A stretch of 64,000 bases of DNA from Candidatus Omnitrophota bacterium. GTDB lineage: Bacteria > Omnitrophota > Gorgyraeia > 2-01-FULL-45-10. The translations under genes were made by a program, and so were the position numbers. This document shows, one piece after another, positions 33,913-52,486 of this stretch. The stretch covers positions 44,886 through 108,885 of the forward strand of contig CAIMPC010000039.1 in assembly GCA_903843285.1 (NCBI GenBank), read 5' to 3'. The notes below the pieces were generated by a model. It worked only from the letters and a program-made list of their open reading frames with translations, had not been told where the DNA came from and did not search any database. The number at the start of each line of letters is the position of its first letter. Position 1 is the stretch's first letter.

Positions 33913-34942
33913 TTTCATATATTCATTGATGACGGATAAGAGAAACGGCGTTATGTGGCTGCCCATTAAGGGACTGCTCTATATATTGTCCCTGGTATAT
34001 GGCCTGGCGATATTCATCAGGGGAATACTATATGCGCTTAGGATATTCAGATCACATAGGGTGAGCCTTAAAGTGATATCGATCGGTAATCTGACGCTCG
34101 GTGGGACAGGTAAGACGCCTTTTTCGATAGCGTTGGCAAATATATTGGAAAGCGAGCTTAAGGTCCCGACGGCGCTACTTATCAGAGGTTACGGCTGGGA
34201 TGAACAGGCTCTTCTTAAAAAGAGATTGCCGGATATTCCGATATTAGTGGGAGAGGATAGGGTTAAATCTGCGCATAAAGCGATCAGGCTGTATGGCAGC
34301 CAATTTGCCATACTCGACGATGGTTTTCAACACTGGGAGCTCGACCGGGATATAGACATAGTGCTGATCGATTCCGGTAGGTCGTTCGGAAACGGGCAGT
34401 TGTTTCCCCGTGGAGTTTTGAGGGAGCCGAAGAGCGCTTTAAAGCGGGCCGATGTGGTCGTATTTACTAAGACAAACAAGAAAGCAACCGATTTAAGCAC
34501 TACAAAAGATATGATATCCGGGATAAACAAAGATGTCGTATTTCTGGAGGCGGTTCATAAACCTTTGCATATACATGATCCTAAGGCGAGAAAGGATCGG
34601 GAGCTATCTTATTTATCCGGAAAAAAAGTAGTGCTCGTATCGAGCATAGGCGATCCTGATTATTTCAATCAGACCGTCAGGGATCTGGGCGCAACGATCC
34701 TGGATCACATGGTGTTCAGTGATCACTATAATTTTAAGTTAAGAGATGTCGAACGTATTATAAAGAACTGTGGCGCGAAGACGCCCGATCTTATTGTAAC
34801 GACCGAAAAAGATGCCGTGAAGTTTGCGCGTATGAGCTTTTCGTTCGGAAACCAAACTATTATGACGCTCGTTATCAATATGGAGATAACCGGCGGCAAG
34901 GAGAAATTAATTGATAGACTTCGTCGCGTACGTATTAGTTAG
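33905..34942 (+). CDS. lpxK: tetraacyldisaccharide 4'-kinase
   Basis: ISIGNLTLGGTGKTPF P-loop, the LpxK signature. Confidence 0.85.
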   Translation: MINFIYSLMTDKRNGVMWLPIKGLLYILSLVYGLAIFIRGILYALRIFRSHRVSLKVISIGNLTLGGTGKTPFSIALANILESELKVPTALLIRGYGWDEQALLKKRLPDIPILVGEDRVKSAHKAIRLYGSQFAILDDGFQHWELDRDIDIVLIDSGRSFGNGQLFPRGVLREPKSALKRADVVVFTKTNKKATDLSTTKDMISGINKDVVFLEAVHKPLHIHDPKARKDRELSYLSGKKVVLVSSIGDPDYFNQTVRDLGATILDHMVFSDHYNFKLRDVERIIKNCGAKTPDLIVTTEKDAVKFARMSFSFGNQTIMTLVINMEITGGKEKLIDRLRRVRIS

Positions 34943-36851
34943 AGTTTTAAATATTATTTTCAGCGTATTGCCTGTAAGCTTTACCCTGTGGCTTGGCCGC
35001 CGCTTGGGAGTCGTCGCGTTTTGGGTGAATAAGAAGAGGCGGTTGATAGCCTACGCGAACCTGAAGGCCGCGTTTGCAAATGAGAAATCTCCCAAAGAGC
35101 TTCGAGCGATAACCAGGCGTGTGTATCAGAATATGGTCCAGACTTTTATGGAGGTGTTGAATCTCACCAAAGTGAACAGGAAGTATGTCGATAAATATGT
35201 GGATATCGTAAATATGGAGCGGATCGAGAATGCCGCTAAGTCCGGCAGGGGCACAGTGCTTTTGACGGCGCATTTTGGGGATTGGGAGCTGTCGAGCCTG
35301 GTAAGCGCCGCGGTGGGGTTTCCTATAACGGTTCTTGTGCGCGAACAAAAGATGAAGCGATTAAATGAAGTGCTGAACAGGCTTAGGGAATCGAATGGCT
35401 GTAAAGTCATCAGTAAGGGCATGGATGTAAAAAACCTTATAAGAACCCTTCGGGATAAAGAGATTGTGGGTATACTTGCCGACCAGGATGCGGGTAAGAG
35501 TGGAATGCTCGTTAATTTTTTCGGCCGCCCCACATCATCTCACTACGGATCCCTGGAAATAGCGAAGCGCACGGACTCCATAATACTTCCCACATTTATA
35601 ATGCGGACTCACGGACCCTACCACAAACTATTTCTCGAGGAGTATATAGATTTCAGAAATATGCAGTCTGAAGATTCTGTAAGGGATAACCTTCAGAAGT
35701 ATATGAGCCTTTTGGAGAAGTACGTCAGGCAGTATCCCGACCAGTGGTTGTGGTTGCATAAGAGGTGGAAATCGACCCCCGTCAGAACTGTTCTCGTCCT
35801 AAGCGATGGCAAGGCCGGACACATGAACCAGTCTCTTGCGATTGCTCATCAGATTCAGAAGGTGAGAATTACGCAGGGTTACAAGGATACGGATACTAAG
35901 ATAGTAGTGATCGATGTTAAGTATAAGAGTAAGTTTGCAAAGACCGCATTAACAATAGCCGCAAACTTTGCATCATGGCGGTGTCATGGCCGTATGGGTA
36001 TCATGAAAGCGTGCCTCGAAAAGGATTCGTATGAAGCGTTGATGAGGACTTATTCGGAATATGTAGTATCTTGCGGTTCCGGTTCGGCGTGCGCGAACGT
36101 CTTTATGGCCAGGGAAAACAATGCGAAGAACATTATAATAATGAAGCCGGGCATGATCGGCCTGTCCCATTTTTCGCTCGCGATCATTCCGAAACATGAT
36201 AAGCCGCCTTCGAGGAAAAACGTTGTAACCACGACTCTCGCTCCGAACCTTATAGATCGCGATAGCATGCATAATTATGGTGAAAAACTTCGGGATCAAT
36301 TAAACATAGAGAAAAATATAGTGCTTGGCGCGATGATAGGCGGCAATAATCCAGACTTTACGATGACTAAAGATATGGTAAATAAGGCAATCTCAGGCCT
36401 GATAGAATTCTGTAAGGCTTATGATGCCGACCTACTACTAACAACATCGCGTCGTACTCCGAAAGAGATAGAGGAGCTTATAAAGGAGCGTCTCGGTAAG
36501 CATAGGTTCTGTAAGATGCTGGTTATCGCCAACCAGAAGAATGCGGAAGGCACAGTCGCCGGAATACTCGATATATGTGATATAGTGGCGGTCTCCGGCG
36601 AATCGGTCTCTATGGTGTCCGAGGCGATACATTCAGGTAAGAAAGTCGTCGTCTTTGGCCTCGAAAAGAGGAAAGAAGGTTTTACAAAATACGAACGTGT
36701 CCTGGATCTTTTAGAGCGGGAGGGATACGTTAATTGCGTTCATCCGTCAGATTTGGGAACGAGACTAGATAAGGTATGGAGAACTGTGCGCGCTATAAAA
36801 AAAGTCGACGATCGCGATAGAACCTTAGAGGCGGTAAAGAGATTATTGTAG
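34911..36851 (+). CDS. lpxL: fusion: lipid A (Kdo2-lipid IVA) late acyltransferase LpxL/HtrB family (N-terminal) + ELM1/DUF1022-like domain (C-terminal)
   Basis: The N-terminal ~290 aa has the LPLAT/HtrB pattern (LTAHFGDWE, TM anchor). The C-terminal ~350 aa (VLVLSDGKAGHMNQSLAIAHQI...) resembles the ELM1/GtrOC1-like putative glycosyltransferase fold. Confidence 0.6.
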   Translation: MIDFVAYVLVRVLNIIFSVLPVSFTLWLGRRLGVVAFWVNKKRRLIAYANLKAAFANEKSPKELRAITRRVYQNMVQTFMEVLNLTKVNRKYVDKYVDIVNMERIENAAKSGRGTVLLTAHFGDWELSSLVSAAVGFPITVLVREQKMKRLNEVLNRLRESNGCKVISKGMDVKNLIRTLRDKEIVGILADQDAGKSGMLVNFFGRPTSSHYGSLEIAKRTDSIILPTFIMRTHGPYHKLFLEEYIDFRNMQSEDSVRDNLQKYMSLLEKYVRQYPDQWLWLHKRWKSTPVRTVLVLSDGKAGHMNQSLAIAHQIQKVRITQGYKDTDTKIVVIDVKYKSKFAKTALTIAANFASWRCHGRMGIMKACLEKDSYEALMRTYSEYVVSCGSGSACANVFMARENNAKNIIIMKPGMIGLSHFSLAIIPKHDKPPSRKNVVTTTLAPNLIDRDSMHNYGEKLRDQLNIEKNIVLGAMIGGNNPDFTMTKDMVNKAISGLIEFCKAYDADLLLTTSRRTPKEIEELIKERLGKHRFCKMLVIANQKNAEGTVAGILDICDIVAVSGESVSMVSEAIHSGKKVVVFGLEKRKEGFTKYERVLDLLEREGYVNCVHPSDLGTRLDKVWRTVRAIKKVDDRDRTLEAVKRLL

Positions 36852-36928: not shown

Positions 36929-39064
36929 ATGAATATTTTGCAGATACTACCGGCATTGGAAGTTGGAGGGGTTGAGACGGGAACGATTGACCTTGCCCGG
37001 TATCTTGTGAAGAACGGTCATAAAGCGATTGTAGTATCCGGTGGAGGGGCGCTCGTTAAGGAACTTGAGGCGATTGGCTCTCGCCATTATTGTCTCGCCG
37101 TGGGGAAGAAGTCGCTCATAAGTGTTATAAAGATGACCAGAGAGCTTATAGGCATCATACGTCGTGAAAACATAGATATCGTGCATGCGCGCTCGAGGGT
37201 TCCGGCGCTTATTGCGTATTTGGCGTGCAAGAGCACGAGCCGTATTCTAATAACTACAGCGCACGGATATTATAAGAAGCATTTGATGAGTGAGTCGATG
37301 AGTTGGGGAAAGTTCGTAATAGTCGCTTCCAATATAATGGTAAAACATATGGCAGGCTCATTTAACGTGCCGTTCGATCGGATAAGGATGATTCCGAGGG
37401 GAGTAGATCTAAACAGGTTTAATTTAAGGACCGGTAAGACCGGACGCCCGAAAGAGTATGTAATAGGAATGGTATCACGAATAACTCCGCTTAAAGCTCA
37501 TGCAGATTTTATAAGGGCGATAGCGCGAATAAGAGGGCAAATACCGAACCTTAAAGTTGTTGTGGTCGGATCGGCCCCAAAAGATAAATATAGAGAAGAT
37601 GTGGAGCTACTTATAAAACAGCTCGGCCTTTCAGGCACTATAGAGCTTATCGGTGCGCGTCAGGATGTGGCCGGGATAATGGGCGAAATGGATATGTTGG
37701 TTTCAGCGACGATGACGCCGGAAGCATTCGGACGCGTAATAATTGAAGCGCAGGCAATCGGCGTTCCTGTGGTGGCTACGAGAGTAGGTGGTGTAGTGGA
37801 TATTGTAGAGGATAACAAAACCGGACTTTTATGCGAACCTCGCAATCCTGATGATATGGCAGAAAAGATATTAAAATTATACAGAGAGAACGGGCTCGCC
37901 GATAGTATTGTCCTGGCTGCCAGAAAACGTGTTGAGGATGAATTTAATTCGGAAAAGATGATGAAAAGGACGCTCGCAGTATACGAGGAAGCGCTGAAGG
38001 TGCAGAATATACTCGTTATAAAAATGAGCGCCATAGGAGATGTTATATTAAGCATCCCCTCACTGCGGGCCATTCGCGCTAAATACCCGAACGCAAAGAT
38101 TAAAGTATTGACTTCGCTTACTTCGCGAGAGGTGCTGAGCGGATGCCCTTATATAAGCGGCTGTATAATATGCGATTTTAAGGGAAAGCACAAAGGCATT
38201 AAAGGGCTATGGGCGCTTGCTAAGGAATTACGCCGTGAATCTTTTGAGATAGTGATCGATCTTCAGAACAACAGGAAGAGCCACATATTGGCGTGCCTCT
38301 GCCTCGCAGGTCTAAGGTATGGTTATGATAACGGTAAGTTATCGCTTCTTCTGAATCGCAGGATAAAGAACGATGCGCCGTATCTCGATCCGATAGAACA
38401 TCAGTTTAGAGTGCTGAAGATGGCGGGAATGAAACCATCAGATAAGGCCTTGGAATTATGGCCATCGACCCACGATGAGACGGAGATAAATAAATTCTTA
38501 TCGGAAAATTGGGTTAAGCCGGGACAGGGCCTGATTGGCATCAATGTCAGGGCCTCCGCGCGCTGGACGAGTAAGAATTGGCCGGCCGTGCTTATAGCCG
38601 AAACATGCGATCGGCTTGCAAAAGAGTATAACGTCCGTGTCATCCTTACGGGAACTGCGGATGATGCCGCATTTGCCGGCGCTATTGCCGGTTCGGCGAA
38701 TTCAAAACCTATCGTGGCCGCGGGTAAGACCACGGTTATGGAGCTCGCGGCGCTTATAAAACGGTTTAAGGTTTTCCTGACTCCGGATTCTGCGCCTATG
38801 CACGTTGCCATAGCGGTCGGGACGCCCTGCGTGGCGTTGTTTGGCCCCACAGATCCTGCGCGGCACGTAGCGCCGTCTAAGGACTGTGTAATATTGAATA
38901 AGGGTAAGGAGCTAAGGTGTAGTCCTTGCTACAAGAGCGAATGTTCGATGAAGATAACCTGTATGAAGCTGATAACGGTCGATGATGTTATCGGGGCTAT
39001 AAAGGTTTTCATGGCGCGCAAGGACGATGTGCCATGTGAAAATCAAGGGCTTCGGTGTCAATGA
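36929..39064 (+). CDS. fusion glycosyltransferase: GT4 (WaaG-like, N-terminal) + GT9 ADP-heptose:LPS heptosyltransferase (C-terminal)
   Basis: N-terminus MNILQILPALEVGGVETGTIDLARYL and the E-x7-E region are GT4. The C-terminal half (ILVIKMSAIGDVILSIPSLRAIRAKYP ... FGPTDPAR) is GT9. Confidence 0.7.
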   Translation: MNILQILPALEVGGVETGTIDLARYLVKNGHKAIVVSGGGALVKELEAIGSRHYCLAVGKKSLISVIKMTRELIGIIRRENIDIVHARSRVPALIAYLACKSTSRILITTAHGYYKKHLMSESMSWGKFVIVASNIMVKHMAGSFNVPFDRIRMIPRGVDLNRFNLRTGKTGRPKEYVIGMVSRITPLKAHADFIRAIARIRGQIPNLKVVVVGSAPKDKYREDVELLIKQLGLSGTIELIGARQDVAGIMGEMDMLVSATMTPEAFGRVIIEAQAIGVPVVATRVGGVVDIVEDNKTGLLCEPRNPDDMAEKILKLYRENGLADSIVLAARKRVEDEFNSEKMMKRTLAVYEEALKVQNILVIKMSAIGDVILSIPSLRAIRAKYPNAKIKVLTSLTSREVLSGCPYISGCIICDFKGKHKGIKGLWALAKELRRESFEIVIDLQNNRKSHILACLCLAGLRYGYDNGKLSLLLNRRIKNDAPYLDPIEHQFRVLKMAGMKPSDKALELWPSTHDETEINKFLSENWVKPGQGLIGINVRASARWTSKNWPAVLIAETCDRLAKEYNVRVILTGTADDAAFAGAIAGSANSKPIVAAGKTTVMELAALIKRFKVFLTPDSAPMHVAIAVGTPCVALFGPTDPARHVAPSKDCVILNKGKELRCSPCYKSECSMKITCMKLITVDDVIGAIKVFMARKDDVPCENQGLRCQ

Positions 39065-41003: not shown

Positions 41004-42032
41004 ATGAATAAACGTATACTGATCGTGAATGTCAATTGGATAGGAGATGTTTTATTCTCGACGCCGTTCTTGCGGACTGTCAGGGAAGCGAATCCAAATG
41101 CATATATTGCATGCCTTTTACATCCGCGATGCAAAGAGATGTTAGAGGCCAATACCAGAATAGACGAGATAATATTATATGACGAAGAACTCGCGCATAA
41201 GAGCATCTTCGGAAAATGGAGGCTCATAAAAGAGCTGAAGCGTAAAAAATTTGATACAGCATATCTTCTTCACCGTTCATTTACGAAAGCCCTGATCGCG
41301 TGTTTGGCCGGCATAAAAGAGAGAGTGGGTTACCCGACGAAGAACAGGGCAGGCATATTAACTAAGGTGGTTGATGAGCCTTCGGAAGAACTGCACAAGG
41401 TAGAGTATTTTCTTAATATTGCCAGGGCTTGCGGCATGGAACCTAAGAGTGTCTCGTACGAATTCTTCGTCCGGGAAGAGGACAGAAAATTTATTACAAA
41501 GCTATTGCAGAAGGAAAGTATATCTGAAAAAGATACTGTGGTTGTGTTGTGTCCGGCCGGAAATTGGCCCCCCAAGAGATGGCCGGCAGAGAACTTCGCC
41601 AGGCTTGGTGATGAACTCGCGGAAAATTGCGGAGCGAAAATCGTGATCTCCGCAGCTGGAAATGATTTGAAGCTTGCTCAAGACATAAAGAGCGTTATGG
41701 CCTCAGTACCTGTGATCGCCGCGGGCAAGACTAATCTGAATCAATTGGGCGCTCTTCTGGAACGAGCGAACCTCGTAGTAGCCAATGATACGGGCCCCAT
41801 GCATGTGTCGGTAGCCGTGGGCGCCAGGACGATCGCACTGTTTGGGCCAACGTCCGCTCGTCTCACAGGCCCATACGGTGAAGGTGATTATAAAGTTATG
41901 TCGGGGAATGTATCGTGTGAAGTCCCGTGCTATGATATTACCTGTGCAGATAATTCATGCATGTCGGCGATAAGAGTTAAGGAAGTGATTAGGGAAGCGT
42001 TAAACATATTGGCAAAACATGATGATCGATAA
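41004..42032 (+). CDS. GT9 heptosyltransferase paralog 1
   Basis: ILIVNVNWIGDVLFSTPFL, GNDTGPMHVS, FGPT motifs. Confidence 0.75.
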   Translation: MNKRILIVNVNWIGDVLFSTPFLRTVREANPNAYIACLLHPRCKEMLEANTRIDEIILYDEELAHKSIFGKWRLIKELKRKKFDTAYLLHRSFTKALIACLAGIKERVGYPTKNRAGILTKVVDEPSEELHKVEYFLNIARACGMEPKSVSYEFFVREEDRKFITKLLQKESISEKDTVVVLCPAGNWPPKRWPAENFARLGDELAENCGAKIVISAAGNDLKLAQDIKSVMASVPVIAAGKTNLNQLGALLERANLVVANDTGPMHVSVAVGARTIALFGPTSARLTGPYGEGDYKVMSGNVSCEVPCYDITCADNSCMSAIRVKEVIREALNILAKHDDR

Positions 42033-42996
42033 TAGCGCGATAAAGCGCATGCTCGTGATAACTCTAAGTAACCTGGGTGACATCATACTCACTACCCCGG
42101 TAATCGCTACGCTAAAGCGAGAGTTTCCGATGGCAAGGATAGACGTCCTGGTTGGGCCTGCGGGCAGAGAAGTGTTCGAAAAAGACCATAATATATTTAA
42201 AATTATCATCTACGATAAACATATGCCGATCGCCGGCAAGCGTCGTCTGCAATTGAAGTTAAAAAAGCTCAAATATGATTTGGTCGTAGATCTTAAGAAT
42301 ACGCTATTCGGTCTATTAATAGGACCAAAATATAGGACCTCAACGATACAAAGCTTTCCGGTGGATGTTATTCACAGTATCGATAGACACCTTCACAGGT
42401 TGAAATCTCTCGGTATAATGAACGTTGAGAGGCAGTCATATATACATATAACTCCCGAAGACGAGGCGCAGATAGCGCACCTTCTAAAGATGCATGGGGT
42501 ACGCGATAGGTTTATAGTTATAAATGCCGGGGCCAAGAGCCATCTGAAACGCTGGACACCCGAAGGATTTGCGGCTGTAGCCGACAGACTTGCCGGTGAA
42601 TGCAAGGCAGATATAGTCTTCATTGGCGCCAAAGAGGACGAACCCATAGTTTCCGAAGTAATAAGGAAGATGAAGCATACGCCGCATAATTTCACAAATA
42701 AAACAAATGTTAGGCAGCTCGGCAACCTATTAAAACGAGCAAAGCTTCTTATAACAAATGACAGTGCTCCTCTGCATCTCGGCTGCGCTGTAGGCGCTAA
42801 AGTGCTCGCAATATTCGGTCCGACGAATCCTAAAAAATACGGCCCTATAGGTGAATTCGATCTGGTTGTTAATAAGAGATTATCCTGTTCGCCGTGCGAG
42901 ACAGCTGTCTGTAGATTTAACTACGAATGCATGTCACTGATCACGGCAGATGATGTCTTTGAATCAGCCAAGATAATGGTAGAGGGATATGAGTAA
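42019..42996 (+). CDS. GT9 heptosyltransferase paralog 2
   Basis: MLVITLSNLGDIILTTPVI, TNDSAPLHLG, FGPTNP. Confidence 0.75.
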   Translation: MMIDNSAIKRMLVITLSNLGDIILTTPVIATLKREFPMARIDVLVGPAGREVFEKDHNIFKIIIYDKHMPIAGKRRLQLKLKKLKYDLVVDLKNTLFGLLIGPKYRTSTIQSFPVDVIHSIDRHLHRLKSLGIMNVERQSYIHITPEDEAQIAHLLKMHGVRDRFIVINAGAKSHLKRWTPEGFAAVADRLAGECKADIVFIGAKEDEPIVSEVIRKMKHTPHNFTNKTNVRQLGNLLKRAKLLITNDSAPLHLGCAVGAKVLAIFGPTNPKKYGPIGEFDLVVNKRLSCSPCETAVCRFNYECMSLITADDVFESAKIMVEGYE

Positions 42997-44017
42997 AAAA
43001 ATTCTTATAGTAAGATTGGACAGGATGGGGGATGTGGTGCTCTCGACGCCGGTCATAAAGGCCATTAGGGGCGCCTATCCCGAAAGTCATATAGCCATGA
43101 TGGTTCGTACGTATTCGCGCGACATTGTTGAAGGCAATCCGTACCTGAGCGAAGTGATAATATACGATAAGAATGGCACTCACAAAGGCCTGATAGGAAA
43201 TTTAAGATTTATTCGGGAATTGAGAAATAAAAAGTTCGATACCGTGGTAGTGCTCCATCCGACTAACCGAACTCACTTAATACTTAGGCTCTCAGGGATT
43301 CCCGATAGGATTGGTTATGATAAGAAGCTAGGATTTCTATTGACCAAAAAGATACCGCATACAAAGCAGTTCGGAATGAAACACGAGATCGCTTACAACC
43401 TGGACGTTTTAAAATATATAGGCATTGAGCCTAAAGATAGTAAGTTATATATGCCGGTCAACAGTATCTCGGAACGCAAGATAACGAAATTATTAACGGC
43501 GAACGGTGTGAATAATTCAGATCTTCTCGTAGCTATAAATCCCGGAGCAAGCTGTGCATCTAAACGGTGGGGTATAGAAAAATTTGCGAAAGCAGCGAAT
43601 GGTCTGGTCGAGAAATACGGCGCTAAAATAATTATCATATCCGGAGATGTCGATAAGCATTTCGGTGACGGTCTGGCTTTATTGATTAAAAATAATTGCA
43701 TTAACCTGTCGGGAAAGACCAGCATAGCTGATACTGCTAGCGTGCTGAGACGTGTTAAACTGTTTATATCAAACGACTCAGGACCTGTTCATGTAAGCTG
43801 TGCTATAGGCACGCCGGTAATAGCGATATTTGGGCGTGGCGATCGGGGGTTATCGCCTAAGAGGTGGGGTCCCAGCGGGAGGAGCGATATCGTATTGCAT
43901 AAGGATGCCGGATGCGATATATGCTATGCGCATAACTGCCGAACCGGATTCAAATGTCTCGATTCTATCACGCCGCAGGAAGTCCTGGATGCAGCGGATC
44001 AGATATTGGGTAAGTAG
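42989..44017 (+). CDS. GT9 heptosyltransferase paralog 3
   Basis: ILIVRLDRMGDVVLSTPVI, SNDSGPVHVS, FGRGD. Confidence 0.75.
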   Translation: MSKKILIVRLDRMGDVVLSTPVIKAIRGAYPESHIAMMVRTYSRDIVEGNPYLSEVIIYDKNGTHKGLIGNLRFIRELRNKKFDTVVVLHPTNRTHLILRLSGIPDRIGYDKKLGFLLTKKIPHTKQFGMKHEIAYNLDVLKYIGIEPKDSKLYMPVNSISERKITKLLTANGVNNSDLLVAINPGASCASKRWGIEKFAKAANGLVEKYGAKIIIISGDVDKHFGDGLALLIKNNCINLSGKTSIADTASVLRRVKLFISNDSGPVHVSCAIGTPVIAIFGRGDRGLSPKRWGPSGRSDIVLHKDAGCDICYAHNCRTGFKCLDSITPQEVLDAADQILGK

Positions 44018-44046
44018 ATATTGAGACGGCAGTGAACGCCCATCAG

Positions 44047-44200
44047 GCGACGGAACTTCCTATGCCGCCTGAAACGACTGTCATAAAATTTCGATACCTA
44101 TTGGCGGTGCAGGTTTTACCATCGAAAGTTTATCACAGCGAGCGAGGAAGCCGATTCCGAGCGAGCGACAAGTGGAAGGCGGCATAGGAAGTTCCGTCGC
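44047..44200 (-). mobile_element. repeat family B, copy 4 in inverted orientation; 154 bp bounded by perfect 23-bp terminal inverted repeats GCGACGGAACTTCCTATGCCGCC / GGCGGCATAGGAAGTTCCGTCGC
   Basis: The reverse complement aligns with copy 3: CCTTCCACTTGTCGCTCGCTCGGAATCGGCTTCCTCGCTCGCTGTGATAAACTTTCGAT vs CCTTCGCTTGTCGTTCGCTCGGATTAGCCATCCTCGCTCACTGTTGATAAAATTTCGAT. The hairpin ATAAAATTTCGAT is also shared. Confidence 0.75.
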
Positions 44201-44268
44201 TATAGACCAGTATGAAAAATGACGGTGTCGTGTTAGCGTATAATAGTTTAAAGAGATGAGGTGAGCGA

Positions 44269-45342
44269 GTGAAGATAGGAATGATAGGGCTACCGCAGGT
44301 GGGCAAGAAGACATTATTTGAGCTAATAACGCGACATAAGCCTACTGAAGCTGAAGTAGCATCGGGGCGTCCGATAAAGGGCGTAGCCGATATTCTGGAC
44401 GGGCGTTTCGATAAGCTCATCTCGATATATAAGCCGCAGAAGAATGTGCGCGCAAGAATAGATATCGAGTTAATACCCAAGCTCGAAAAAGATTCGATCG
44501 CCAAAGGAGATATATTTAAGGATATTAATGAGCTCGATGCCATATGCCATGTCGTAAGAGCCTTTAGCGATGAATCCGTGTATCATGTCGACGGTTCGAT
44601 TGACCCGAAGCGCGATATAGGTTTCGTTAATTCGGAGCTCATACTGCACGACCTTATCTTTATTGAGAAGAGGGTGGAGAGGTTAGATAAAACGATAAAG
44701 CAGACTAAGGAAGAAGCGGCGGTCAAAGAGAGGGAGGTCCTCGGAAAATTGAAGAGTCATCTCGAAAAGGATCTGCCGCTTCGTACTTTAGATCTGACGA
44801 GCGATGATAAAAAGCTTATATCGAGTTACCCGTTCATATCGCGTAAGGATATGTTCATAGTTCTGAATGTCTCTGAATCTGCGCTGAAAGATACGAAATT
44901 ACAGGTCGAGCTTACCAGTGAGCTTAAACCGATTAAGATAGATGTAATGCAGGTCTCGGCTAAAGTAGAGGAAGAGATAACAGCGCTCGATTCCGAGGCG
45001 GAGAGATTAGAGTTTATGCAGTCTCTGGGCATAAACGAGCCTGCCATCAACCTTATGACACAGTTGTGCTTAAGAACGCTGAATCTCATCTCATTCTTTA
45101 CCGTAGGCCCCGACGAGGTCCGGCAATGGAATACCAAGAAAAGTTCCACGGCACCTGAAGCGGCAGGGGCTATTCACACAGATCTTCAGAGGGGATTTAT
45201 AAGGGCCGAGGTGATGAAGTATGATGATCTCATAAACCTGGGATCCGAGGAACAGGTCAAATCCTCCGGTAAATATTATCTTAAGGGCAAGGATTATACG
45301 GTCGAAGACGGCGATATACTGACCATCAGATTTAATGTGTAA
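44269..45342 (+). CDS. ychF: ribosome-binding ATPase YchF (Obg-like, with TGS domain)
   Basis: GTG start; MKIGMIGLPQVGKKTLFELIT G1 motif; C-terminal TGS (DYTVEDGDILTIRFNV). Confidence 0.9.
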   Translation: MKIGMIGLPQVGKKTLFELITRHKPTEAEVASGRPIKGVADILDGRFDKLISIYKPQKNVRARIDIELIPKLEKDSIAKGDIFKDINELDAICHVVRAFSDESVYHVDGSIDPKRDIGFVNSELILHDLIFIEKRVERLDKTIKQTKEEAAVKEREVLGKLKSHLEKDLPLRTLDLTSDDKKLISSYPFISRKDMFIVLNVSESALKDTKLQVELTSELKPIKIDVMQVSAKVEEEITALDSEAERLEFMQSLGINEPAINLMTQLCLRTLNLISFFTVGPDEVRQWNTKKSSTAPEAAGAIHTDLQRGFIRAEVMKYDDLINLGSEEQVKSSGKYYLKGKDYTVEDGDILTIRFNV

Positions 45343-45397
45343 TGGTACATATATAACCTGGTTAGATATGTCAATACCGCGCTCATGTCTCCATGCT

Positions 45398-45482
45398 GTC
45401 ATGCTGAGCGAAGCGAAGCATCTGCTTTTATTTATTGCCGTCGTAACCAGATCCTTCGGCCATTTCATGGTCTCAGGATGAC
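45398..45482 (+). repeat. repeat family A, divergent 85-bp core copy (GTCATGCTGAG...CTCAGGATGAC)
   Basis: GTCATGCTGAGCGAAGCGAAGCATCTGC...CATGGTCTCAGGATGAC. Terminal inverted repeats match family A core ends. Confidence 0.55.
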
Positions 45483-45516
45483 GCTACTTTTATCGGACAG
45501 GCATGGCATCTAACGA

Positions 45517-45546
45517 TTGACCTTATAATCATTTATGTGATAAAAT
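45517..45546 (+). promoter_or_regulatory. candidate sigma70 promoter upstream of the DHS-like/hldE/kds operon
   Basis: TTGACC, 18-nt spacer, TAAAAT; about 25 nt upstream of the RBS AAGGAAGAG and the ATG at 45570. Confidence 0.4.
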
Positions 45547-45569
45547 AGCGCGAGTTCGAAAGGAAGAGT

Positions 45570-46517
45570 ATGTCAGACAATCCACGACCGAAGATAGACC
45601 TTAGTAAGATCAAAACCATTCCCCTTAATGTCCGTAAATGTAAGGTCTCCATAAGCGATTTCGCAAAGACTGCCAAAAAAGGCGAAAGCTTTAAGACATT
45701 CTACGATTCGCTTCCTCGGATACTTGTTGCCCAAAATCTTAAGGCACTAGTAAGAGATGTAGCCGCCGCCTATAAAAAAAATAAGATGATCATAATAATG
45801 ATGGGTGCACACGTGATAAAGTGCGGCGTTTCACCGCTTATTATTGATCTGATGAAGCGGGGTGTCGTAAAGGCTGTTGCGCTTAACGGCGCGGGAGTTA
45901 TACACGATACCGAAATAGCTATGATAGGGCGCACCAGCGAGGATGTTGGTGAAGGCATCCTCGATGGGTCATTTGGTATGGCTAAGGAGACGGCGAGCTT
46001 TATTAATCAGGCCATAAACTCTGGATTCAATGAAGGTATCGGTATTGGTGAGGCCGTCGGCGCAAACATAGTTAAGTCGAAGCTTCCACACAGAAATCTT
46101 AGTATACTCGCGAATGCGTACGAACTAAACCTATCCGTTACCGCGCACGTGGCAATAGGAACCGATATTATACATCAGCATCCGTCGGCCAGCGGTGTCG
46201 CTATAGGGGAGGGCTCGCTTATAGATTTCAGAAATTTCATATACAGCGTTTCGCAGCTGGAGGCCGGGGTTCTGATAAACCTGGGGTCGGCCGTAATACT
46301 TCCCGAGGTATTCCTGAAGGCTATTACAGTGGCGCGTAATCTGGGCAACAAAGTAGATACTCTTACGACCGCCAATTTTGACATGATAAGCCAGTACAGG
46401 CCATATCAAAATATATTATGCCGTCCGACTTCTAAGGGCGGCAAGGGTTACAATATAATAGGTCATCACGAGATCATGATACCATTATTGTACCGATCGA
46501 TAATAGAGAGTATATGA
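45570..46517 (+). CDS. deoxyhypusine synthase-like family protein (tentative)
   Basis: Block pattern resembles DHS: IIMMGAHVIKCGVSPLIIDLMKRGVVKAVALNGAGVIHDTEIAMIG resembles NIISSGLRGIIAELVRRNIVDVVVTTAGTLDHDIARAFG, and GVLINLGSAVILPE resembles GMIILGGGVVKHH. Alignment is from memory only. Confidence 0.4.
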   Translation: MSDNPRPKIDLSKIKTIPLNVRKCKVSISDFAKTAKKGESFKTFYDSLPRILVAQNLKALVRDVAAAYKKNKMIIIMMGAHVIKCGVSPLIIDLMKRGVVKAVALNGAGVIHDTEIAMIGRTSEDVGEGILDGSFGMAKETASFINQAINSGFNEGIGIGEAVGANIVKSKLPHRNLSILANAYELNLSVTAHVAIGTDIIHQHPSASGVAIGEGSLIDFRNFIYSVSQLEAGVLINLGSAVILPEVFLKAITVARNLGNKVDTLTTANFDMISQYRPYQNILCRPTSKGGKGYNIIGHHEIMIPLLYRSIIESI

Positions 46518-46518
46518 G

Positions 46519-47514
46519 ATGAAGGTAAAAAATTTTAGCTATTATAGGAATACCATCACGAATTTTAAGAAGGCCAAAGTGCTCGTGATTGGAGATCTGA
46601 TGCTCGATGAATTCATATGGGGAGAGGTCACCAGAATATCTCCGGAAGCGCCTGTGCCGGTAGTATGGGTGAAGAAAGAGAGTTTTATGCCGGGAGGTGC
46701 CTCGAACGTTGCCAATAATCTGAGGAGCCTGGGAGCCGACGTGCATCTGGTCGGAGTGATTGGTAAAGATGAGCACGGGGCGATCTTAAAAGGCGAACTC
46801 GAACAGAAGGGGATCCGGACGGCAGGTATAATAACGGATGAATCCAGGCCCACAATATTAAAGACCCGAGTGGTAGCACACCATCAGCAGGTTGTAAGGA
46901 TAGATAAAGAAAAAAAAGATCCGCTCAAAGACGTGATCTTAGAGCGTATGATTGCCTACATAGAAAGCATAATAAAGGGCATGGACGCTGTCATAATAGA
47001 GGATTATGCAAAAGGCGTGATAACGCCGATGCTGCTTAAAAAGGTAGTGCCGATGGCCAAGCGTAATAATAAGATAATATCCGTCGATCCTAAGGAAGAG
47101 CATTTCGCATACTATAAAGGTATCACCGTGATAACTCCGAATAATCATGAAGCTGCCAGAGCGGTAGGGTTTGAAATAAATGATGATGTGACCTTAAGAA
47201 AAGCCGGTGAAAAATTGCTTTCGAAGCTTAATTGTAAAATAGGACTCATAACGCTCGGTGAAAACGGTATGGCAGTATTTCAAAAGAATAAGCCTATGGA
47301 ACAAATACCTACCGTGGCTCAGGAGGTGTTTGATGTATCCGGTGCCGGAGATACGGTGATAGCGAGCTACACCCTGTCGCTTGCATCCGGAGCAGACCCT
47401 ATAACTTCAGCGCATATATCTAACTGCGCGGCCGGCATAGTGGTGGGAAAGGTCGGGATAGCGGTCGTTTCGCCCGATGAACTGCTTGCAAGGATCAAGA
47501 AGGAATTATTTTAA
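46519..47514 (+). CDS. hldE: D-glycero-beta-D-manno-heptose-7-phosphate kinase (HldE/RfaE domain I only, PfkB family)
   Basis: KVLVIGDLMLDEFIWGEVTRISPEAPVPVV; C-terminal GAGDT motif (SGAGDTVIAS). Confidence 0.85.
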   Translation: MKVKNFSYYRNTITNFKKAKVLVIGDLMLDEFIWGEVTRISPEAPVPVVWVKKESFMPGGASNVANNLRSLGADVHLVGVIGKDEHGAILKGELEQKGIRTAGIITDESRPTILKTRVVAHHQQVVRIDKEKKDPLKDVILERMIAYIESIIKGMDAVIIEDYAKGVITPMLLKKVVPMAKRNNKIISVDPKEEHFAYYKGITVITPNNHEAARAVGFEINDDVTLRKAGEKLLSKLNCKIGLITLGENGMAVFQKNKPMEQIPTVAQEVFDVSGAGDTVIASYTLSLASGADPITSAHISNCAAGIVVGKVGIAVVSPDELLARIKKELF

Positions 47515-47561
47515 TCAGATACGTTGGCATATTAAAGTAAAATTTGAGGGGGTATTATTAA

Positions 47562-48323
47562 GTGAAGGCTATAGGAGTTATACCGGCGCGTTGGGGCGCA
47601 ACTAGGTTCGAGGGTAAGGTACTTGCTAATTTGTTAGGCAAGCCCGTTATTCAGCATGTATGGGAGAATGCTAAGAAGGCCAAGACATTGGATGACCTGG
47701 TGGTTGCATGCGATGACGAAAGGATACTTAAGGCCGTTGAGCGCTTTGGAGGAAAAGCGGTATACACTTCCCCAAACCAGCCTTCGGGTACGGACAGGCT
47801 CGCAGAGGTCGTCAATGCTATGAATATAGACATAGCCGTAAATATCCAGGGTGATGAGCCTCTGATGAAGCCGATAATGATAGACAATCTCGTTATGGCG
47901 CTCCAGGAAGAGAAGGTCGCCGGGATGGCGACGATCGTAAAGAAGATCGAGGATGATTCCGAGCTCACTAACTCAAACGTCGTTAAAGTCATAATCGATA
48001 AGAACGGATATGCGATATACTTTTCGCGATATGCGATACCTTATAACAGGACGAACGGGACGGACTCAAAGAAGAGGCCGACGTACTATAAGCATATAGG
48101 TCTTTATGCGTTTACTAAGGATTTTCTGTTCACGTTTAAGAAACTCCCTAATTCATCATTGGAGAATGCCGAGAAGTTGGAGCAATTAAGGGCTATTGAA
48201 TATGGCTATAAAATCAAAGTCGTTGAGACGAAGTTCGATACCGTGGGAGTCGATAGGCCCGAAGACCTAAAGAAAGCCGAAGCTCTGCTTCTGCGTGAAC
48301 AGGAAAACCAATCCAGTGACTAA
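47562..48323 (+). CDS. kdsB: 3-deoxy-manno-octulosonate cytidylyltransferase (CMP-Kdo synthetase)
   Basis: MKAIGVIPARWGATRFEGKVLANLLGKPVIQHV. Confidence 0.9.
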   Translation: MKAIGVIPARWGATRFEGKVLANLLGKPVIQHVWENAKKAKTLDDLVVACDDERILKAVERFGGKAVYTSPNQPSGTDRLAEVVNAMNIDIAVNIQGDEPLMKPIMIDNLVMALQEEKVAGMATIVKKIEDDSELTNSNVVKVIIDKNGYAIYFSRYAIPYNRTNGTDSKKRPTYYKHIGLYAFTKDFLFTFKKLPNSSLENAEKLEQLRAIEYGYKIKVVETKFDTVGVDRPEDLKKAEALLLREQENQSSD

Positions 48324-49134
48324 GGAAGTCGTTGCGGGAGGAGTGAAGATAGGCGGGGCCAACCCTCTGGTCCTGATAGCCGGGCCATGTGTGATAGAGT
48401 CCGAGTCGAGCGCCATGCGCCATGCCAGGGCTTTAAAGTCCATAGCCGTAAGAGCCAACATTCCATTCATTTATAAGGCAAGCTACGATAAAGCCAACCG
48501 CACTTCCGGATCATCCTACAGGGGTCCCGGAATAAAGAAGGGCCTGAAGATACTCAAAAAGATTAAAGAAGATTTCGGAATACCCGTACTCTCGGACGTG
48601 CACTCCGTCGAGGAAGTGAAAGAGTCCGCTAAGGTCCTCGATATCATTCAGATACCCGCATTCCTATGCAGGCAGACAGACCTTATACTGGAGGCGGCCG
48701 GGACCGGCAGGGTGGTAAATGTGAAGAAGGGGCAGTTCCTGGCGCCTTGGGATATGAAGAACGTGGTGAAGAAGATAGAGTCTACCGGAAATAGGAAAAT
48801 ATTACTGACCGAGCGCGGCGCAAGCTTCGGCTACAACACTTTGGTGAGCGACTTCAGGTCGCTTTTGATAATGAAGGACCTCGGATATCCGGTGGTATAT
48901 GATGCCACTCATTCTGTGCAGTCCCCGGGCGGCATGGGTGAGAAGTCCGGCGGAGATCGGAAGTATATTCCGTATCTTGCGATGGCCTCGGTCGTGTGCG
49001 GTGCCAACGCCATATTTATGGAAGTCCATGAGGATCCTGACAGCGCATTAAGCGACGGTCCGAATATGATTAAACTCGACTCGCTCGAAGGACTGCTTAC
49101 TAAGCTTATTAAAATAGAAAAGGCGGCCGGATAA
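48295..49134 (+). CDS. kdsA: 2-dehydro-3-deoxyphosphooctonate aldolase (Kdo-8-P synthase); start uncertain (GTG 48295 or 48316)
   Basis: LVLIAGPCVIESE, FIYKASYDKANRTS, and overall KdsA length. Confidence 0.85.
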   Translation: MNRKTNPVTKEVVAGGVKIGGANPLVLIAGPCVIESESSAMRHARALKSIAVRANIPFIYKASYDKANRTSGSSYRGPGIKKGLKILKKIKEDFGIPVLSDVHSVEEVKESAKVLDIIQIPAFLCRQTDLILEAAGTGRVVNVKKGQFLAPWDMKNVVKKIESTGNRKILLTERGASFGYNTLVSDFRSLLIMKDLGYPVVYDATHSVQSPGGMGEKSGGDRKYIPYLAMASVVCGANAIFMEVHEDPDSALSDGPNMIKLDSLEGLLTKLIKIEKAAG

Positions 49135-50093
49135 TGTCTATAGCGATGGCTAAAAAAGTCCTTAAGATCGAGCGTGACGCGATATCAAGCCTTATACCGA
49201 GGATAGATGCTAATTTTAAGAAGATCGTTGACCTTATGTATAAGGTGAAGGGACGCGTTATAGTGACCGGTATGGGAAAACCCGGATTTATTGCTCAGAA
49301 GATATCTGCGACGTTGTCCTCGACCGGTACTCCGTCTTTATATCTGCATCCGGCTGAAGCCCTCCACGGGGATCTTGGACGCGTTACGAGAGACGATCTG
49401 ATCCTTGCCCTTTCTAATAGCGGCGAGACCGAGGAGATAATAAAATTTCTGCCTATAGTTAAGAAGATCGGCGCGAAACTTGTATCGATGACCGGCAATC
49501 TTTCATCTACGCTGGCCAAATTTTCGGATTATGTTATCGATACGCATGTTTTGAGGGAGGCATGCCCGCTCGGGCTTGCTCCGACCACATCCACGACAGT
49601 TATGCTTGCACTCGGAGATGCCGTAGCGGTAGCGCTTTTGGATAAGAAGGGATTTAAGGAAAAGGATTTTGCCTTCTATCATCCGGGTGGTATCCTCGGT
49701 AAAAGGCTTTTATTAACGGTGGATGATATTATGAGGAAGGGGCATGCGAGTCCTGTTGTAGGGGAAAAGATGAAGGTTAAGCAGGTGCTTCTGGCTATAA
49801 CCAAATCTAGAGCAGGATGCGCCTGCGTCGTAGATGCCAGGGGAAAGTTGGCCGGAATATTTACGGACGGAGATTTGCGCAGGCAGTTGGAGATAAAGCC
49901 GGGGCTGATCGAGTGCGAAGTAAAATACGTAATGACCAAAAATCCCACGGTTATAACTAAGGAAAGACTGGCCGCTGAAGCCTTTGACATATTGAGATCT
50001 AAGAGGATTGACGAGCTTCCTGTGGTCGACAGTAAGAGACGGCCTATTGGCCTACTTGACGTGCAGGACATATTAAAGGCGGGGCTTGTATGA
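49134..50093 (+). CDS. kdsD: arabinose-5-phosphate isomerase (SIS + tandem CBS)
   Basis: SIS domain VIVTGMGKPGFIAQKISATLSSTG; C-terminal CBS pair. Confidence 0.9.
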   Translation: MSIAMAKKVLKIERDAISSLIPRIDANFKKIVDLMYKVKGRVIVTGMGKPGFIAQKISATLSSTGTPSLYLHPAEALHGDLGRVTRDDLILALSNSGETEEIIKFLPIVKKIGAKLVSMTGNLSSTLAKFSDYVIDTHVLREACPLGLAPTTSTTVMLALGDAVAVALLDKKGFKEKDFAFYHPGGILGKRLLLTVDDIMRKGHASPVVGEKMKVKQVLLAITKSRAGCACVVDARGKLAGIFTDGDLRRQLEIKPGLIECEVKYVMTKNPTVITKERLAAEAFDILRSKRIDELPVVDSKRRPIGLLDVQDILKAGLV

Positions 50094-50620
50094 TCGCCCC
50101 GGACATCATCGATAAGATAAAGAAGATAAGACTCCTTATCCTGGATATAGATGGTGTTATGACAGACGGCCATATCATCTATTCGATTTACGGTGATGAG
50201 CTTAAGTTTTTCGATGTGCAGGACGGTTTCGGAATAACGCTTCTTAATAAAGCCGGGATAAAAAGCGTCATTATTACAGCAAAGAAATCAAGGATTGTAA
50301 AACTAAGAGCGCGTGACATGAAGATAGCAAAGGCATATCAGGGTTATTATGATAAATTGAAGGCCTTTAATCACGCTATAAGGAAATTTAAAGTTAAACC
50401 CGAAGAGGTCTGTTTCATCGGCGATGATCTGATAGACCTGCCGGTATTAAGACGCGTTGGGCTGGCAGTGGCCGTGCCCAACGCTGTGGAAGAGGTCAGA
50501 CAGCATGCTCATTTGGTGACATCGAAGGCAGGCGGCCATGGCGGCGTGCGCGAGCTCTGCGACCTTATTCTAAAGTCCCAGGGCAAGTGGGATCTGGCCA
50601 CAGAGAAGTACTTCAAATAA
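50090..50620 (+). CDS. kdsC: Kdo-8-phosphate phosphatase (HAD-IIIA)
   Basis: LILDIDGVMTDGHIIYS HAD motif I; 176 aa. Confidence 0.85.
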   Translation: MIAPDIIDKIKKIRLLILDIDGVMTDGHIIYSIYGDELKFFDVQDGFGITLLNKAGIKSVIITAKKSRIVKLRARDMKIAKAYQGYYDKLKAFNHAIRKFKVKPEEVCFIGDDLIDLPVLRRVGLAVAVPNAVEEVRQHAHLVTSKAGGHGGVRELCDLILKSQGKWDLATEKYFK

Positions 50621-50635
50621 AGTAATAAACCAATT

Positions 50636-51304
50636 ATGCATATTCCAGATGGTTATCTAGGGCCCGCGACCTGCGGGTTTTTTTATGCAGTGATGATTCC
50701 TGTATGGACGTTTGCCTCGAGGATAGTTAAGAGGACCCTCTCGACGAAGCAGGTTCCGCTCCTCGCCATAGGCGCCGCATTCAGCTTCGTTATAATGATG
50801 TTCAACCTGCCTATACCCGGAGGAACTACCGGCCATGCGGTCGGTGGCGTTCTGGTGGCGATACTCTTAGGGCCGTGGGCGGCATGTCTGGCGATTACGG
50901 TCGCATTGGTGGTTCAGGCCCTTCTTTTCGGAGACGGTGGAGTCACTGCCATCGGCGCAAATTGTTTCAATATGGCTTTTGTACTGCCATTTGCAGGATA
51001 TTATACATACAGATTAATAAGCTATGGCGCGCCTATTGTTTCAAATAGAAGAATCATTGCGGCAGGGATAGCGGGATATATAGGCCTTAATGCCGCCGCA
51101 TTATTGACCGGCATAGAATTTGGTATACAGCCTCTGATTCATCGTACAGCAAACGGCCAGGCGCTGTATTGTCCATACGGGATCAACGTAGCGGTTCCTG
51201 TAATGGCCGGAGAGCATCTTTTGATATTCGGATGGATAGAAGCGATAGTAACCGCGCTCGTTGTTAAATATCTTCAGAAGCAGGACGTAGGCCTGCTTAA
51301 ATAA
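50636..51304 (+). CDS. cbiM: CbiM/NikM-family ECF transporter substrate-capture component (Co/Ni)
   Basis: MHIPDGYL N-terminus, the hallmark of CbiM/NikM; multi-pass membrane protein. Confidence 0.7.
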   Translation: MHIPDGYLGPATCGFFYAVMIPVWTFASRIVKRTLSTKQVPLLAIGAAFSFVIMMFNLPIPGGTTGHAVGGVLVAILLGPWAACLAITVALVVQALLFGDGGVTAIGANCFNMAFVLPFAGYYTYRLISYGAPIVSNRRIIAAGIAGYIGLNAAALLTGIEFGIQPLIHRTANGQALYCPYGINVAVPVMAGEHLLIFGWIEAIVTALVVKYLQKQDVGLLK

Positions 51305-51305
51305 G

Positions 51306-51420
51306 GGGACTGTTGCGAAATGCAACTTCCGTCATTCTGAGGGAGGCCATCGGCCGACCGAAGAATCTATTTACCGTCGAGATTCTTCACTGCGCCCTTC
51401 GGGCTTCGTTCAGAATGACG
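51306..51420 (+). repeat. repeat family A, copy lacking right outer terminal inverted repeat
   Basis: GGGACTGTTGCGAAATGCAACTTCCGTCATTCTGAGGGAGGCCATCGGCCGACCGAAGAATCTATTTACCGTCGAGATTCTTCACTGCGCCCTTCGGGCTTCGTTCAGAATGAC. Confidence 0.75.
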
Positions 51421-51510
51421 CATGCCATTATATGACTGAGCTGTTACACGGTTTCCTCGCAATGGCAAAGGTTGTTATATTACTGAGCTGTTACAAATAA
51501 AGGCGGATGC

Positions 51511-51840
51511 ATGAAGACTATTACGAAACTTTGGATTGGGCTTGCTATATTGATCGTGGTCTCACCGATTGGCTTGATACTTCCGGAACATTTTAAAGCA
51601 GGTTCTGCATGGGGCGAGTGGGGAGCTGAAGAAATACACAAACTGGTCGGCTACATACCTAAGGGCTTTGAAAAGATAGGAAGTCTATGGAATGCGCCCA
51701 TACAGGACTATGCGTTTAAGCTCTGGGGCGGTAAAGGGCCTTTTCATATCGGCGCTACATACATCTTATCCGCTACGCTTGGCATAGCAATAACAGTCTC
51801 TATAGTACTATTTCTCGGCCGATTCCTTTCGAAGAAGTAA
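51511..51840 (+). CDS. small membrane protein adjacent to cbiM (possible CbiN/PDGLE-like partner)
   Basis: TM helix at each end. It sits next to cbiM but is separated from it by a family A repeat. Confidence 0.35.
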   Translation: MKTITKLWIGLAILIVVSPIGLILPEHFKAGSAWGEWGAEEIHKLVGYIPKGFEKIGSLWNAPIQDYAFKLWGGKGPFHIGATYILSATLGIAITVSIVLFLGRFLSKK

Positions 51841-52051
51841 ATGAGGCAATAAAAACATCTTTACGATTATATGACTATTGACTTAGACATATTTTATGAT
51901 ACTATTAGTGTAAGTAAAGGGGGTGGTGCGATACCAGTCAAATGAGTTTGACGAGTTATCCGGATTATTATGGGTGCAATAACCATGGTCCGGAAAGAAT
52001 CGGGGCGTAGTTTTTACAGAAGGCTACAACCAAAGAAATGGAGGCTCGCGC

Positions 52052-52486
52052 ATGAAGAGAATATGGGGTTGTCTTAGTTGCAGTAAGGGCTTTACGTTAA
52101 TCGAATTAATAATAGTCGTTATAATAGTAGGTGTTCTTGCCGCAATAGCGATACCGCAATATGCCGGGTTTGTAGAGAGGGCTAGAACCACCGAAGCCGT
52201 GGGTGCCATCGGCGCTATTAAAGTAGCGGAGGAAGCACGGAGAATAGAAACCGGCTCCTATTTAAGTTGCGCTGACGCCGCGGCGATAACCGCAGGTTTA
52301 GGTGTGACCGTTGATGTCACTAATTGGACATACGCGGCTGCCGGAACTGCCGGAACCTCGGTTGTTATAACGGCGACGAGGACCGCCGCAAACGGAGGTA
52401 CCGTGGGACAAACAATTGTTCTTACATGGACCGCCGCTACACAGACAGGCGTGTGGAGCGGGACTCACCCGAACAGGCCTAAATAA
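52052..52486 (+). CDS. pilA: type IV major pilin (prepilin with N-terminal methylation motif)
   Basis: Leader ...SKG|FTLIELIIVVIIVGVLAAIAIPQY with the classic class III signal, Glu+5 present. Ala/Thr/Gly-rich C-terminal head. Confidence 0.85.
   Translation: MKRIWGCLSCSKGFTLIELIIVVIIVGVLAAIAIPQYAGFVERARTTEAVGAIGAIKVAEEARRIETGSYLSCADAAAITAGLGVTVDVTNWTYAAAGTAGTSVVITATRTAANGGTVGQTIVLTWTAATQTGVWSGTHPNRPK

Follow-up and report, generated by a model that had tools for sequence, protein, structure and literature searches.

A protein family with a deoxyhypusine-synthase-like fold linked to the bacterial ADP-heptose pathway

We analysed a 64,000-nucleotide stretch of contig CAIMPC010000039.1 from Candidatus Omnitrophota bacterium (GenBank assembly GCA_903843285.1, positions 44,886 to 108,885 of the forward strand), hereafter called the window. 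Our subject is the gene at 45570-46517 on the plus strand, an open reading frame (ORF) running from ATG to TGA whose product has 315 amino acids (aa). Judged by its profile match, this protein is a clear member of NF052581, the ‘GSU2086 family’, which has no assigned function. We find that the family is very probably a dedicated component of the heptose pathway, with a fold like that of deoxyhypusine synthase (DHS) and of the LOR/SDH-type ornithine cyclodeaminases; its membership in the pathway rests on conserved gene order and on gene fusions. The family was known already as a catalogued, uncharacterised entry. What is new is that it is tied to a sugar pathway rather than to amines, as a functional variant of the DHS/LOR-SDH branch.

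Five activities, GmhA, HldA, GmhB, HldC and HldD, are held to make up the whole of the ADP-heptose pathway. ALPK1 senses the pathway's intermediates, which act as innate-immune agonists, and the pathway is a target for antibiotic adjuvants. A sixth conserved, fusion-linked protein, present in at least 599 species, would imply either an overlooked non-orthologous replacement of one step or an additional reaction; the latter, if true, would alter the set of heptose isomers produced and released by these bacteria, and the species concerned include electroactive Geobacter and Akkermansia-labelled genomes. An action on heptose would also extend DHS-fold chemistry from amines to sugars, and would make this family the first member of the DHS/LOR-SDH group known to act on a sugar instead of an amine. 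The finding suggests that a well-studied pathway of medical relevance has a testable component that went unnoticed.

Family membership and fold

The match to NF052581 (425.8 bits against a cut-off of 250, E 1.1e-127) spans residues 8-309 of the protein and positions 1-300 of the 301 in the model. The match to the family is thus full-length, and the genomic setting, between heptose-pathway genes, is that of the family's namesake, GSU2086 of Geobacter sulfurreducens; at family level there is no difference. Neither a Pfam model nor a solved structure exists for the family, and every source annotation seen reads ‘hypothetical protein’. More than 8000 homologues were found, and these form 2630 clusters at 50% identity with E ≤ 1e-3 (564 with E ≤ 1e-30); thus the ORF is a real gene. 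In the literature we found no paper linking DHS-like proteins to heptose, and nothing on GSU2086 beyond a transposon-sequencing (Tn-seq) table (PMC5585712).

The count of at least 599 species comes from a scan of one genome per species, and the gene-order counts given below rest on the best 80 loci (80 species) among them. By label, about 31 of these loci belong to Desulfobacterota or ‘delta’ lineages, about 17 to Nitrospirota, 10 to Omnitrophota, 5 to Verrucomicrobiota (one being Akkermansia muciniphila), 3 to Poribacteria and 3 to Acidobacteriota; Binatia, Planctomycetota, Bacteroidota, KSB1 and Calditrichia are represented as well. Lineages beyond those of the 80 loci are represented by a Gemmatimonadota chromosome and two plasmids. 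Close family members also occur on contigs labelled Methanothrix, Nanoarchaeota, Actinomycetota and Saccharibacteria (P0042, P0282, P0298, L007), which look mis-binned, since their neighbouring genes are of the lipopolysaccharide (LPS) type, namely gmhA and genes for family 9 glycosyltransferases (GT9).

A preliminary description of the gene, made from the sequence, had taken its product for a relative of DHS on the strength of three sequence blocks. All three are present (GAHVIKCG at residues 79-86, VALNGAGVIHD at 103-113 and GVLINLGSAV at 233-242), and the resemblance to DHS is one of genuine remote homology, although membership in the DHS family itself, and the polyamine chemistry that would go with it, proved wrong. 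An AlphaFold2 model based on an alignment of 140 sequences has a mean predicted local distance difference test score (pLDDT) of 94.5 and a predicted TM-score (pTM) of 0.90; it supersedes a model made with 21 close homologues, whose pLDDT was 72.6. The predicted structure contains the DHS-type Rossmann fold, and the top-ranked Foldseek match for it is DHS (7cmc, E 7e-9, TM 0.58-0.65).

The relationship can also be seen at the level of sequence profiles. When the family was compared by hhalign with a profile of six DHS sequences (human DHS, 100% identical to PDB 1rlz, and five plasmid-borne archaeal and bacterial DHS genes), residues 72-226 of the family aligned with 97-269 of DHS at a probability of 71% and E 3.7e-5. 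A profile of 71 diverse family members matched the C-terminal domains of the cyclodeaminases ArgZ and AgrE (E 2e-5 to 7e-5) and the related structure 3c2q (E 5e-4), while its match to DHS was weak (E 0.012). Significant matches came only from the diverse family profile and the six-sequence DHS profile; single-sequence and shallow-profile comparisons against PDB sequences and human DHS gave nothing significant. Among domain models, PF21570 (the ArgZ-like C-terminal Rossmann domain) scores 16.9 bits and PF01916 scores 16.3 bits, each against a cut-off of 27, and both sub-threshold matches cover the first beta-alpha-beta unit only (residues 54-118 for PF01916). The PF01916 membership envisaged in the preliminary description is therefore not found, and the confident match is to NF052581 instead. 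The DHS equivalogs score lower still against their cut-offs (TIGR00321, 15 bits versus 304; NF002630, 12 bits versus 364). We conclude that, under the DHS-like dinucleotide-binding fold, the GSU2086 family forms a branch of its own in the DHS/LOR-SDH group. It is about as distant from DHS as from the LOR/SDH-type cyclodeaminases and is a member of neither.

Identity between the family protein and DHS (human DHPS 6xxj, P. horikoshii 7cmc) is 10-16%. The catalytic lysine of human DHS is Lys329. It lies in an SWGK motif that is invariant in all six DHS sequences compared but absent from the GSU2086 family, in which K250 is the last invariant lysine and R277 and R285 are the invariant basic residues between the last two strands; the search for a catalytic lysine that the preliminary description had called for thus came out negative. 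When a global hhalign alignment is forced, P286, beside the invariant R285, falls opposite Lys329 in a region of low alignment confidence, and D271 falls opposite DHS D313. The spermidine-binding residues of human DHS (D243, D316, E323, W327 and H288) face T198, I273, Q280, C284 and P245/E246, respectively, in this forced, low-confidence alignment, and the facing family positions are mostly variable. DHS differs in context as well: the GSU2086 family has neither its eIF5A-type substrate context nor polyamine genes, and is tied to sugar-phosphate genes instead.

The LOR/SDH-type cyclodeaminases (AgrE Alr4995, 6lrf; ArgZ Sll1336, 6juy; M. maripaludis 3c2q) share with the family both the fold and an H-D-x-E ... 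G-x-T motif. The sequence likeness is limited to about 64 residues (aa 57-120), however, and PF21570, which reaches 27-33 bits in some relatives, stays below its cut-off for the window protein. Unlike these enzymes, the protein has no N-terminal LOR/SDH or guanidino-modifying domain. The window, the 80 loci and the 150 cluster representatives described below showed neither arginine or ornithine genes nor fusions to arginine dihydrolase.

About 45 positions are invariant across the 140 aligned sequences, many of them His, Asp, Glu, Arg or Lys. The glycine-rich loops that follow the strands (G79, N106-G107, G239-S240) are invariant or nearly so, as in dinucleotide-binding sites, a pattern of conservation that is consistent with binding of nicotinamide adenine dinucleotide (NAD) or another dinucleotide.

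Gene order and fusions with heptose enzymes

The canonical pathway has five steps, carried out by GmhA, HldA (the N-terminal part of HldE), GmhB, HldC (the C-terminal part of HldE) and HldD (PMC10221265). We scanned all ORFs of the 80 loci by phmmer, using as queries GmhA, GmhB, HldE and HldD of E. coli together with the window's own genes. A gmhA gene is present in 46 of the loci, and in 38 it lies directly upstream of the family gene on the same strand, at a median gap of 7 nucleotides (nt). This gmhA-family pair is the commonest arrangement, and it often stands alone, away from hldE. The hldA kinase gene is directly downstream in 14 loci (median gap 1 nt), kds and GT9 genes accompany the family gene in Omnitrophota and Planctomycetota, and genes for HldC and GmhB do so in a few loci; the co-occurrence with hld and kds genes that the preliminary description had proposed to look for is thus seen in these loci. 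A metagenome-assembled genome labelled A. muciniphila has the order family-hldA-gmhB, and on the Gemmatimonadota chromosome a fused HldC-GmhB comes next after the family gene. In Desulfobacterota loci, judging by their sequences, the hemC and cobA/hemD genes downstream and selA upstream look unrelated to heptose.

Fusions were surveyed in the 150 best cluster representatives. The family domain is joined to heptose-1-phosphate adenylyltransferase (rfaE_dom_II, HldC) in P0123, P0132, P0160, P0175 and P0266, to a complete HldE in P0194 and to an HldA-type kinase in P0178; TIGR02199 exceeds its cut-off in P0123, P0160 and P0194. Fusions to GmhA occur in P0172 and P0185, those with the SIS domain being found in both orders. 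The domain is fused to a GmhB-type HAD-IIIA phosphatase in P0239, and to a damage-control phosphatase plus HldC in P0163. Among the same sequences, P0121 and P0209 contain two tandem copies of the family domain, P0254 combines it with fragments of glycoside hydrolase family 38 (GH38) and is a possible chimera, and P0138 has a 200-aa N-terminal extension without a Pfam or NCBIfam match.

More distant members of the family, on two plasmids, retain the heptose module. In pDCAR1 of Solidesulfovibrio carbinolicus (L094 10444-20036), the module consists of an HldC-HldA fusion, the family gene and a SIS gene; next come one SPASM and two B12-binding radical-SAM enzymes, with nonulosonic-acid and split transketolase genes beside the module. 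This cluster may serve to make a modified heptose or a higher sugar. In the Chloroflexota plasmid CP069395.1 (L095 11167-14597), a HAD-family-PfkB-SIS module adjoins a sugar ABC transporter and Gfo/Idh/MocA oxidoreductases.

Genetic data come from Geobacter sulfurreducens. There, GSU2086 lies in a cluster with gmhB (GSU2084), hldE (GSU2085) and gmhA (GSU2087). In a Tn-seq study, insertions in GSU2086 impaired growth on electrodes to the same degree as those in hldE and gmhA, with scores of -3.1 for hldE, -3.2 for GSU2086 and -3.7 for gmhA (PMC5585712). In H. pylori, gmhA (HP0857) and hldD (HP0859) are two genes apart (PMC10221265); in the Geobacter order gmhA-GSU2086-hldE-gmhB, the family gene is placed relative to gmhA comparably to hldD of H. 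pylori.

Proposed reaction and alternatives

In DHS and the LOR/SDH-type ornithine cyclodeaminases, NAD+ serves as a transient oxidant and is restored with every turnover; the chemistry of HldD is alike. Because both structural relatives use NAD+ in this way, we propose a redox-neutral NAD reaction for the GSU2086 family as well. The protein would be a soluble cytoplasmic enzyme in the pathway from sedoheptulose 7-phosphate to the nucleotide-activated glycero-manno-heptose of the LPS core; by analogy it probably holds NAD+, and would oxidise and then re-reduce a heptose intermediate. The most economical step would be epimerisation at C6, from D-glycero to L-glycero, which we favour because GmhA, HldA, GmhB and HldC are all found fused or adjacent to the family and HldD never is. 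The substrate could be ADP-D,D-heptose, as the frequent HldC fusions hint, or heptose 7-phosphate, as the tight pairing with gmhA hints. In the window, the four GT9 heptosyltransferase domains encoded a short way upstream would draw on the product. A replacement of GmhB was considered and rejected, given the GmhB-type phosphatases fused or adjacent to the family, and a replacement of GmhA, HldA or HldC was rejected on the same grounds.

HldD (also RfaD or GmhD; ADP-L-glycero-D-manno-heptose 6-epimerase) belongs to the short-chain dehydrogenase/reductase (SDR) fold, which the family protein does not share either in structure or by homology. It is nevertheless the proposed functional analogue, being NAD(P)-dependent and redox-neutral, and being the sole canonical ADP-heptose step never fused or adjacent to the family. 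No HldD orthologue was found within 10 kb of the family gene in the 80 loci, where the only two SDR matches are generic (27% identity; one resembles dTDP-glucose dehydratase), and no SDR domain was found in the fusions among the 150 representatives. A paper on the heptose pathway of A. muciniphila lists GmhA, HldE and GmhB as the enzymes annotated in KEGG and says nothing of HldD (PMC9427033), a silence that backs the epimerase idea weakly.

With these observations in hand, we put forward only tentatively, and at somewhat less than even chances, that the GSU2086-family protein is, by analogy with its relatives, an NAD-dependent C6 epimerase acting on a heptose intermediate. That such an epimerase takes the place of HldD is a suggestion to be held with similar hesitation. 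It is doubtful, though conceivable, that the pathway has an unrecognised fifth enzyme of this kind in hundreds of species, that is, a DHS-fold, NAD-dependent epimerase which replaces the SDR enzyme HldD or makes another heptose isomer; the same doubt attaches to its extent, which would span Omnitrophota, Nitrospirota, Desulfobacterota, Verrucomicrobiota (including Akkermansia-labelled genomes), Acidobacteriota, Planctomycetota and others.

Several points weigh against an epimerase. The tightest partner of the family is GmhA, the first enzyme of the pathway, and not HldC, whereas HldD acts last. Many bacteria use D,D-heptose, for which an epimerase is unnecessary. The invariant residues include H81, H112, H193, H202, H300, D113, E115, D199 and E301, a set that could equally indicate a metal site and a different chemistry, and the binding of NAD is itself proposed from the modelled fold and from loop conservation. 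The C-terminal half of the protein is not significantly similar to DHS at the sequence level, and the residue mapping described above is of low confidence for this reason. In addition, Chloroflexota are a monoderm lineage not expected to make LPS; the Chloroflexota plasmid and the radical-SAM context in Solidesulfovibrio suggest that the role of the family may be broader than L,D-heptose for LPS.

Another reading is an NAD-dependent enzyme of the heptose pathway other than a C6 epimerase, one performing some other redox reaction, epimerisation or rearrangement together with GmhA, on sedoheptulose 7-phosphate, heptose 7-phosphate or ADP-heptose, and leading to a modified heptose. We consider this possible but unlikely. 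The fold evidence bears on it just as it does on the epimerase, and it would account for the predominance of the gmhA-family pair (38 of 80 loci), often apart from hldE, for SIS fusions in either order, for the Solidesulfovibrio module, which lies in a glycan cluster of the nonulosonic-acid type beside three radical-SAM/B12 enzymes, and for the Chloroflexota module next to a sugar transporter and oxidoreductases. However, the canonical pathway knows or needs no specific sixth reaction (PMC10221265), and family genes are present in ordinary clusters for the LPS core that include GT9 heptosyltransferases, as in the window. The protein might instead be a non-catalytic partner that binds NAD or ADP-heptose in its dinucleotide cleft and regulates or scaffolds GmhA and HldE. 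ADP-heptose is an ADP-sugar resembling ADP-ribose. Even so, this is improbable, for some 45 invariant positions are typical of an active site, and the Tn-seq phenotype in Geobacter is the same as for the catalytic genes.

The preliminary description had offered two further readings, a polyamine-type transferase recruited to envelope biosynthesis and a mere neighbour. For the former, an aminobutyl transferase of the DHS or homospermidine synthase type, one can cite the DHS-like fold and the weak PF01916 matches of this protein (16 bits) and of some relatives, PF01916 being precomputed for 13 of 120 homologues; but the match of the window protein lies below the curated cut-offs, the SWGK motif and any invariant lysine after K250 are missing, a proline stands opposite Lys329 in the forced alignment, and no polyamine genes are nearby, the context being one of heptose genes in every lineage examined. 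We regard it as most unlikely. Scarcely any credence is due to a LOR/SDH-type ornithine cyclodeaminase or other amino-acid enzyme found in sugar operons by chance, given that the PF21570 score falls short, that the sequence match covers residues 57-120 only, and that context and fusions are exclusively with heptose enzymes. As for a neighbour with no functional tie to LPS, nothing favours it beyond the position of the gene in a single window, and it is effectively refuted by an adjacency kept in more than 10 phyla, by multiple independent fusions and by a Geobacter fitness phenotype common with hldE and gmhA.

The gene and its surroundings in the window

The features that surround the gene are as follows.

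36929..39064, plus strand: GT4-GT9 fusion glycosyltransferase of 711 aa, with a fourth heptosyltransferase-type domain
41004..44017, plus strand: three tandem GT9 heptosyltransferase genes (PF01075, E 1e-29 to 9e-42; TIGR02195, TIGR02201)
45517..45546, plus strand: sigma-70-like promoter match by consensus comparison (TTGACC, 18 nt, TG-n-TAAAAT)
45561..45566, plus strand: Shine-Dalgarno-like AGGAAG, 3 nt 5' of the ATG, read from the sequence
45570..46517, plus strand: GSU2086-family protein gene, 315 aa, with a predicted DHS/LOR-SDH-like Rossmann fold
46519..47514, plus strand: heptose-7-phosphate kinase, the kinase domain of HldE alone (TIGR02198, 402.5 bits against a cut-off of 345; PfkB)
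47562..48323, plus strand: kdsB, CMP-Kdo synthetase (PF02348, E 1.7e-60), Kdo being 3-deoxy-D-manno-octulosonic acid
48316..49134, plus strand: kdsA, Kdo-8-phosphate synthase (PF00793, E 7.6e-72)
49134..50093, plus strand: kdsD, arabinose-5-phosphate isomerase with SIS and CBS domains (TIGR00393, 307 bits; NF008141)
50090..50620, plus strand: kdsC, Kdo-8-phosphate phosphatase (TIGR01670, 174.6 bits against a cut-off of 107)

The start of kdsA is taken from the gene call on the source contig (L001 12747-13565, equal to window 48316-49134); an alternative GTG start lies at 48295. The kinase gene begins 1 nt past the stop of the family gene and is followed by kdsB, kdsA, kdsD and kdsC, so that the location directly 5' of heptose kinase and Kdo genes given in the preliminary description is correct. 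On the 5' side, the genes on the same strand are ychF, the three GT9 genes, whose products are consumers of activated heptose, a polysaccharide deacetylase, a GT4 and the GT4-GT9 fusion, and further upstream an LpxL-type acyltransferase, lpxK and waaA; all genes from waaA (32620) onwards share the strand. The family gene sits within a long cluster for LPS core and lipid A. Its description as the head of an operon is apt only in part: the same-strand run reaches back to waaA, and in a related Omnitrophota contig the family gene comes 15 nt after three GT9 genes with no ychF between.

A gap of 227 nt separates the ychF stop from the family gene and contains the promoter-like site. This site matches the consensus at 10 of 12 positions, has the upstream TG and is the top-scoring site in 44000-52200; yet the number of such sites in that region (18) is not in excess of shuffled controls (14.4 ± 3.8), and for this reason 45517-45546 is a plausible candidate promoter by consensus match only. 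The ‘recognisable promoter’ of the preliminary description thus stands as the best regional match, though not as a site that rises above chance in number. A search for riboswitches or structured leaders in 45200-45700 gave no match to any Rfam family. Directly 3' of the ychF stop and 5' of the promoter-like site, at 45347-45371, is a near-perfect 12-nt palindrome, ACATATATAACC T GGTTAGATATGT. Lacking both a loop and a T-run, it does not resemble an intrinsic terminator, and it may serve as a binding site for a protein.

No gmhA, gmhB, hldC (the adenylyltransferase) or hldD turned up among the ORFs examined, which covered the window and 10 kb past each end; the remaining heptose-pathway genes must therefore be encoded elsewhere in the source Omnitrophota genome.

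Other features of the window deserve brief mention. A 262-aa ORF without an NCBIfam match lies at 25495-26283, between aroE and aroC in a row of aromatic amino-acid genes. At 34911-36851, an LpxL-type lauroyl acyltransferase is fused to a PF06258 (Mito_fiss_Elm1-like) domain in a protein of 646 aa; this fusion and the GT4-GT9 fusion at 36929-39064 are unusual, and both are kept in the related Omnitrophota contig. Right after kdsC, at 50636-51304, stands a lone cbiM, a component of an energy-coupling factor (ECF)-type cobalt/nickel transporter, whose customary partners, cbiQ and cbiO, are found about 20 kb farther downstream (L096 17502-19150), past a cluster resembling those for type IV pili and type II secretion.
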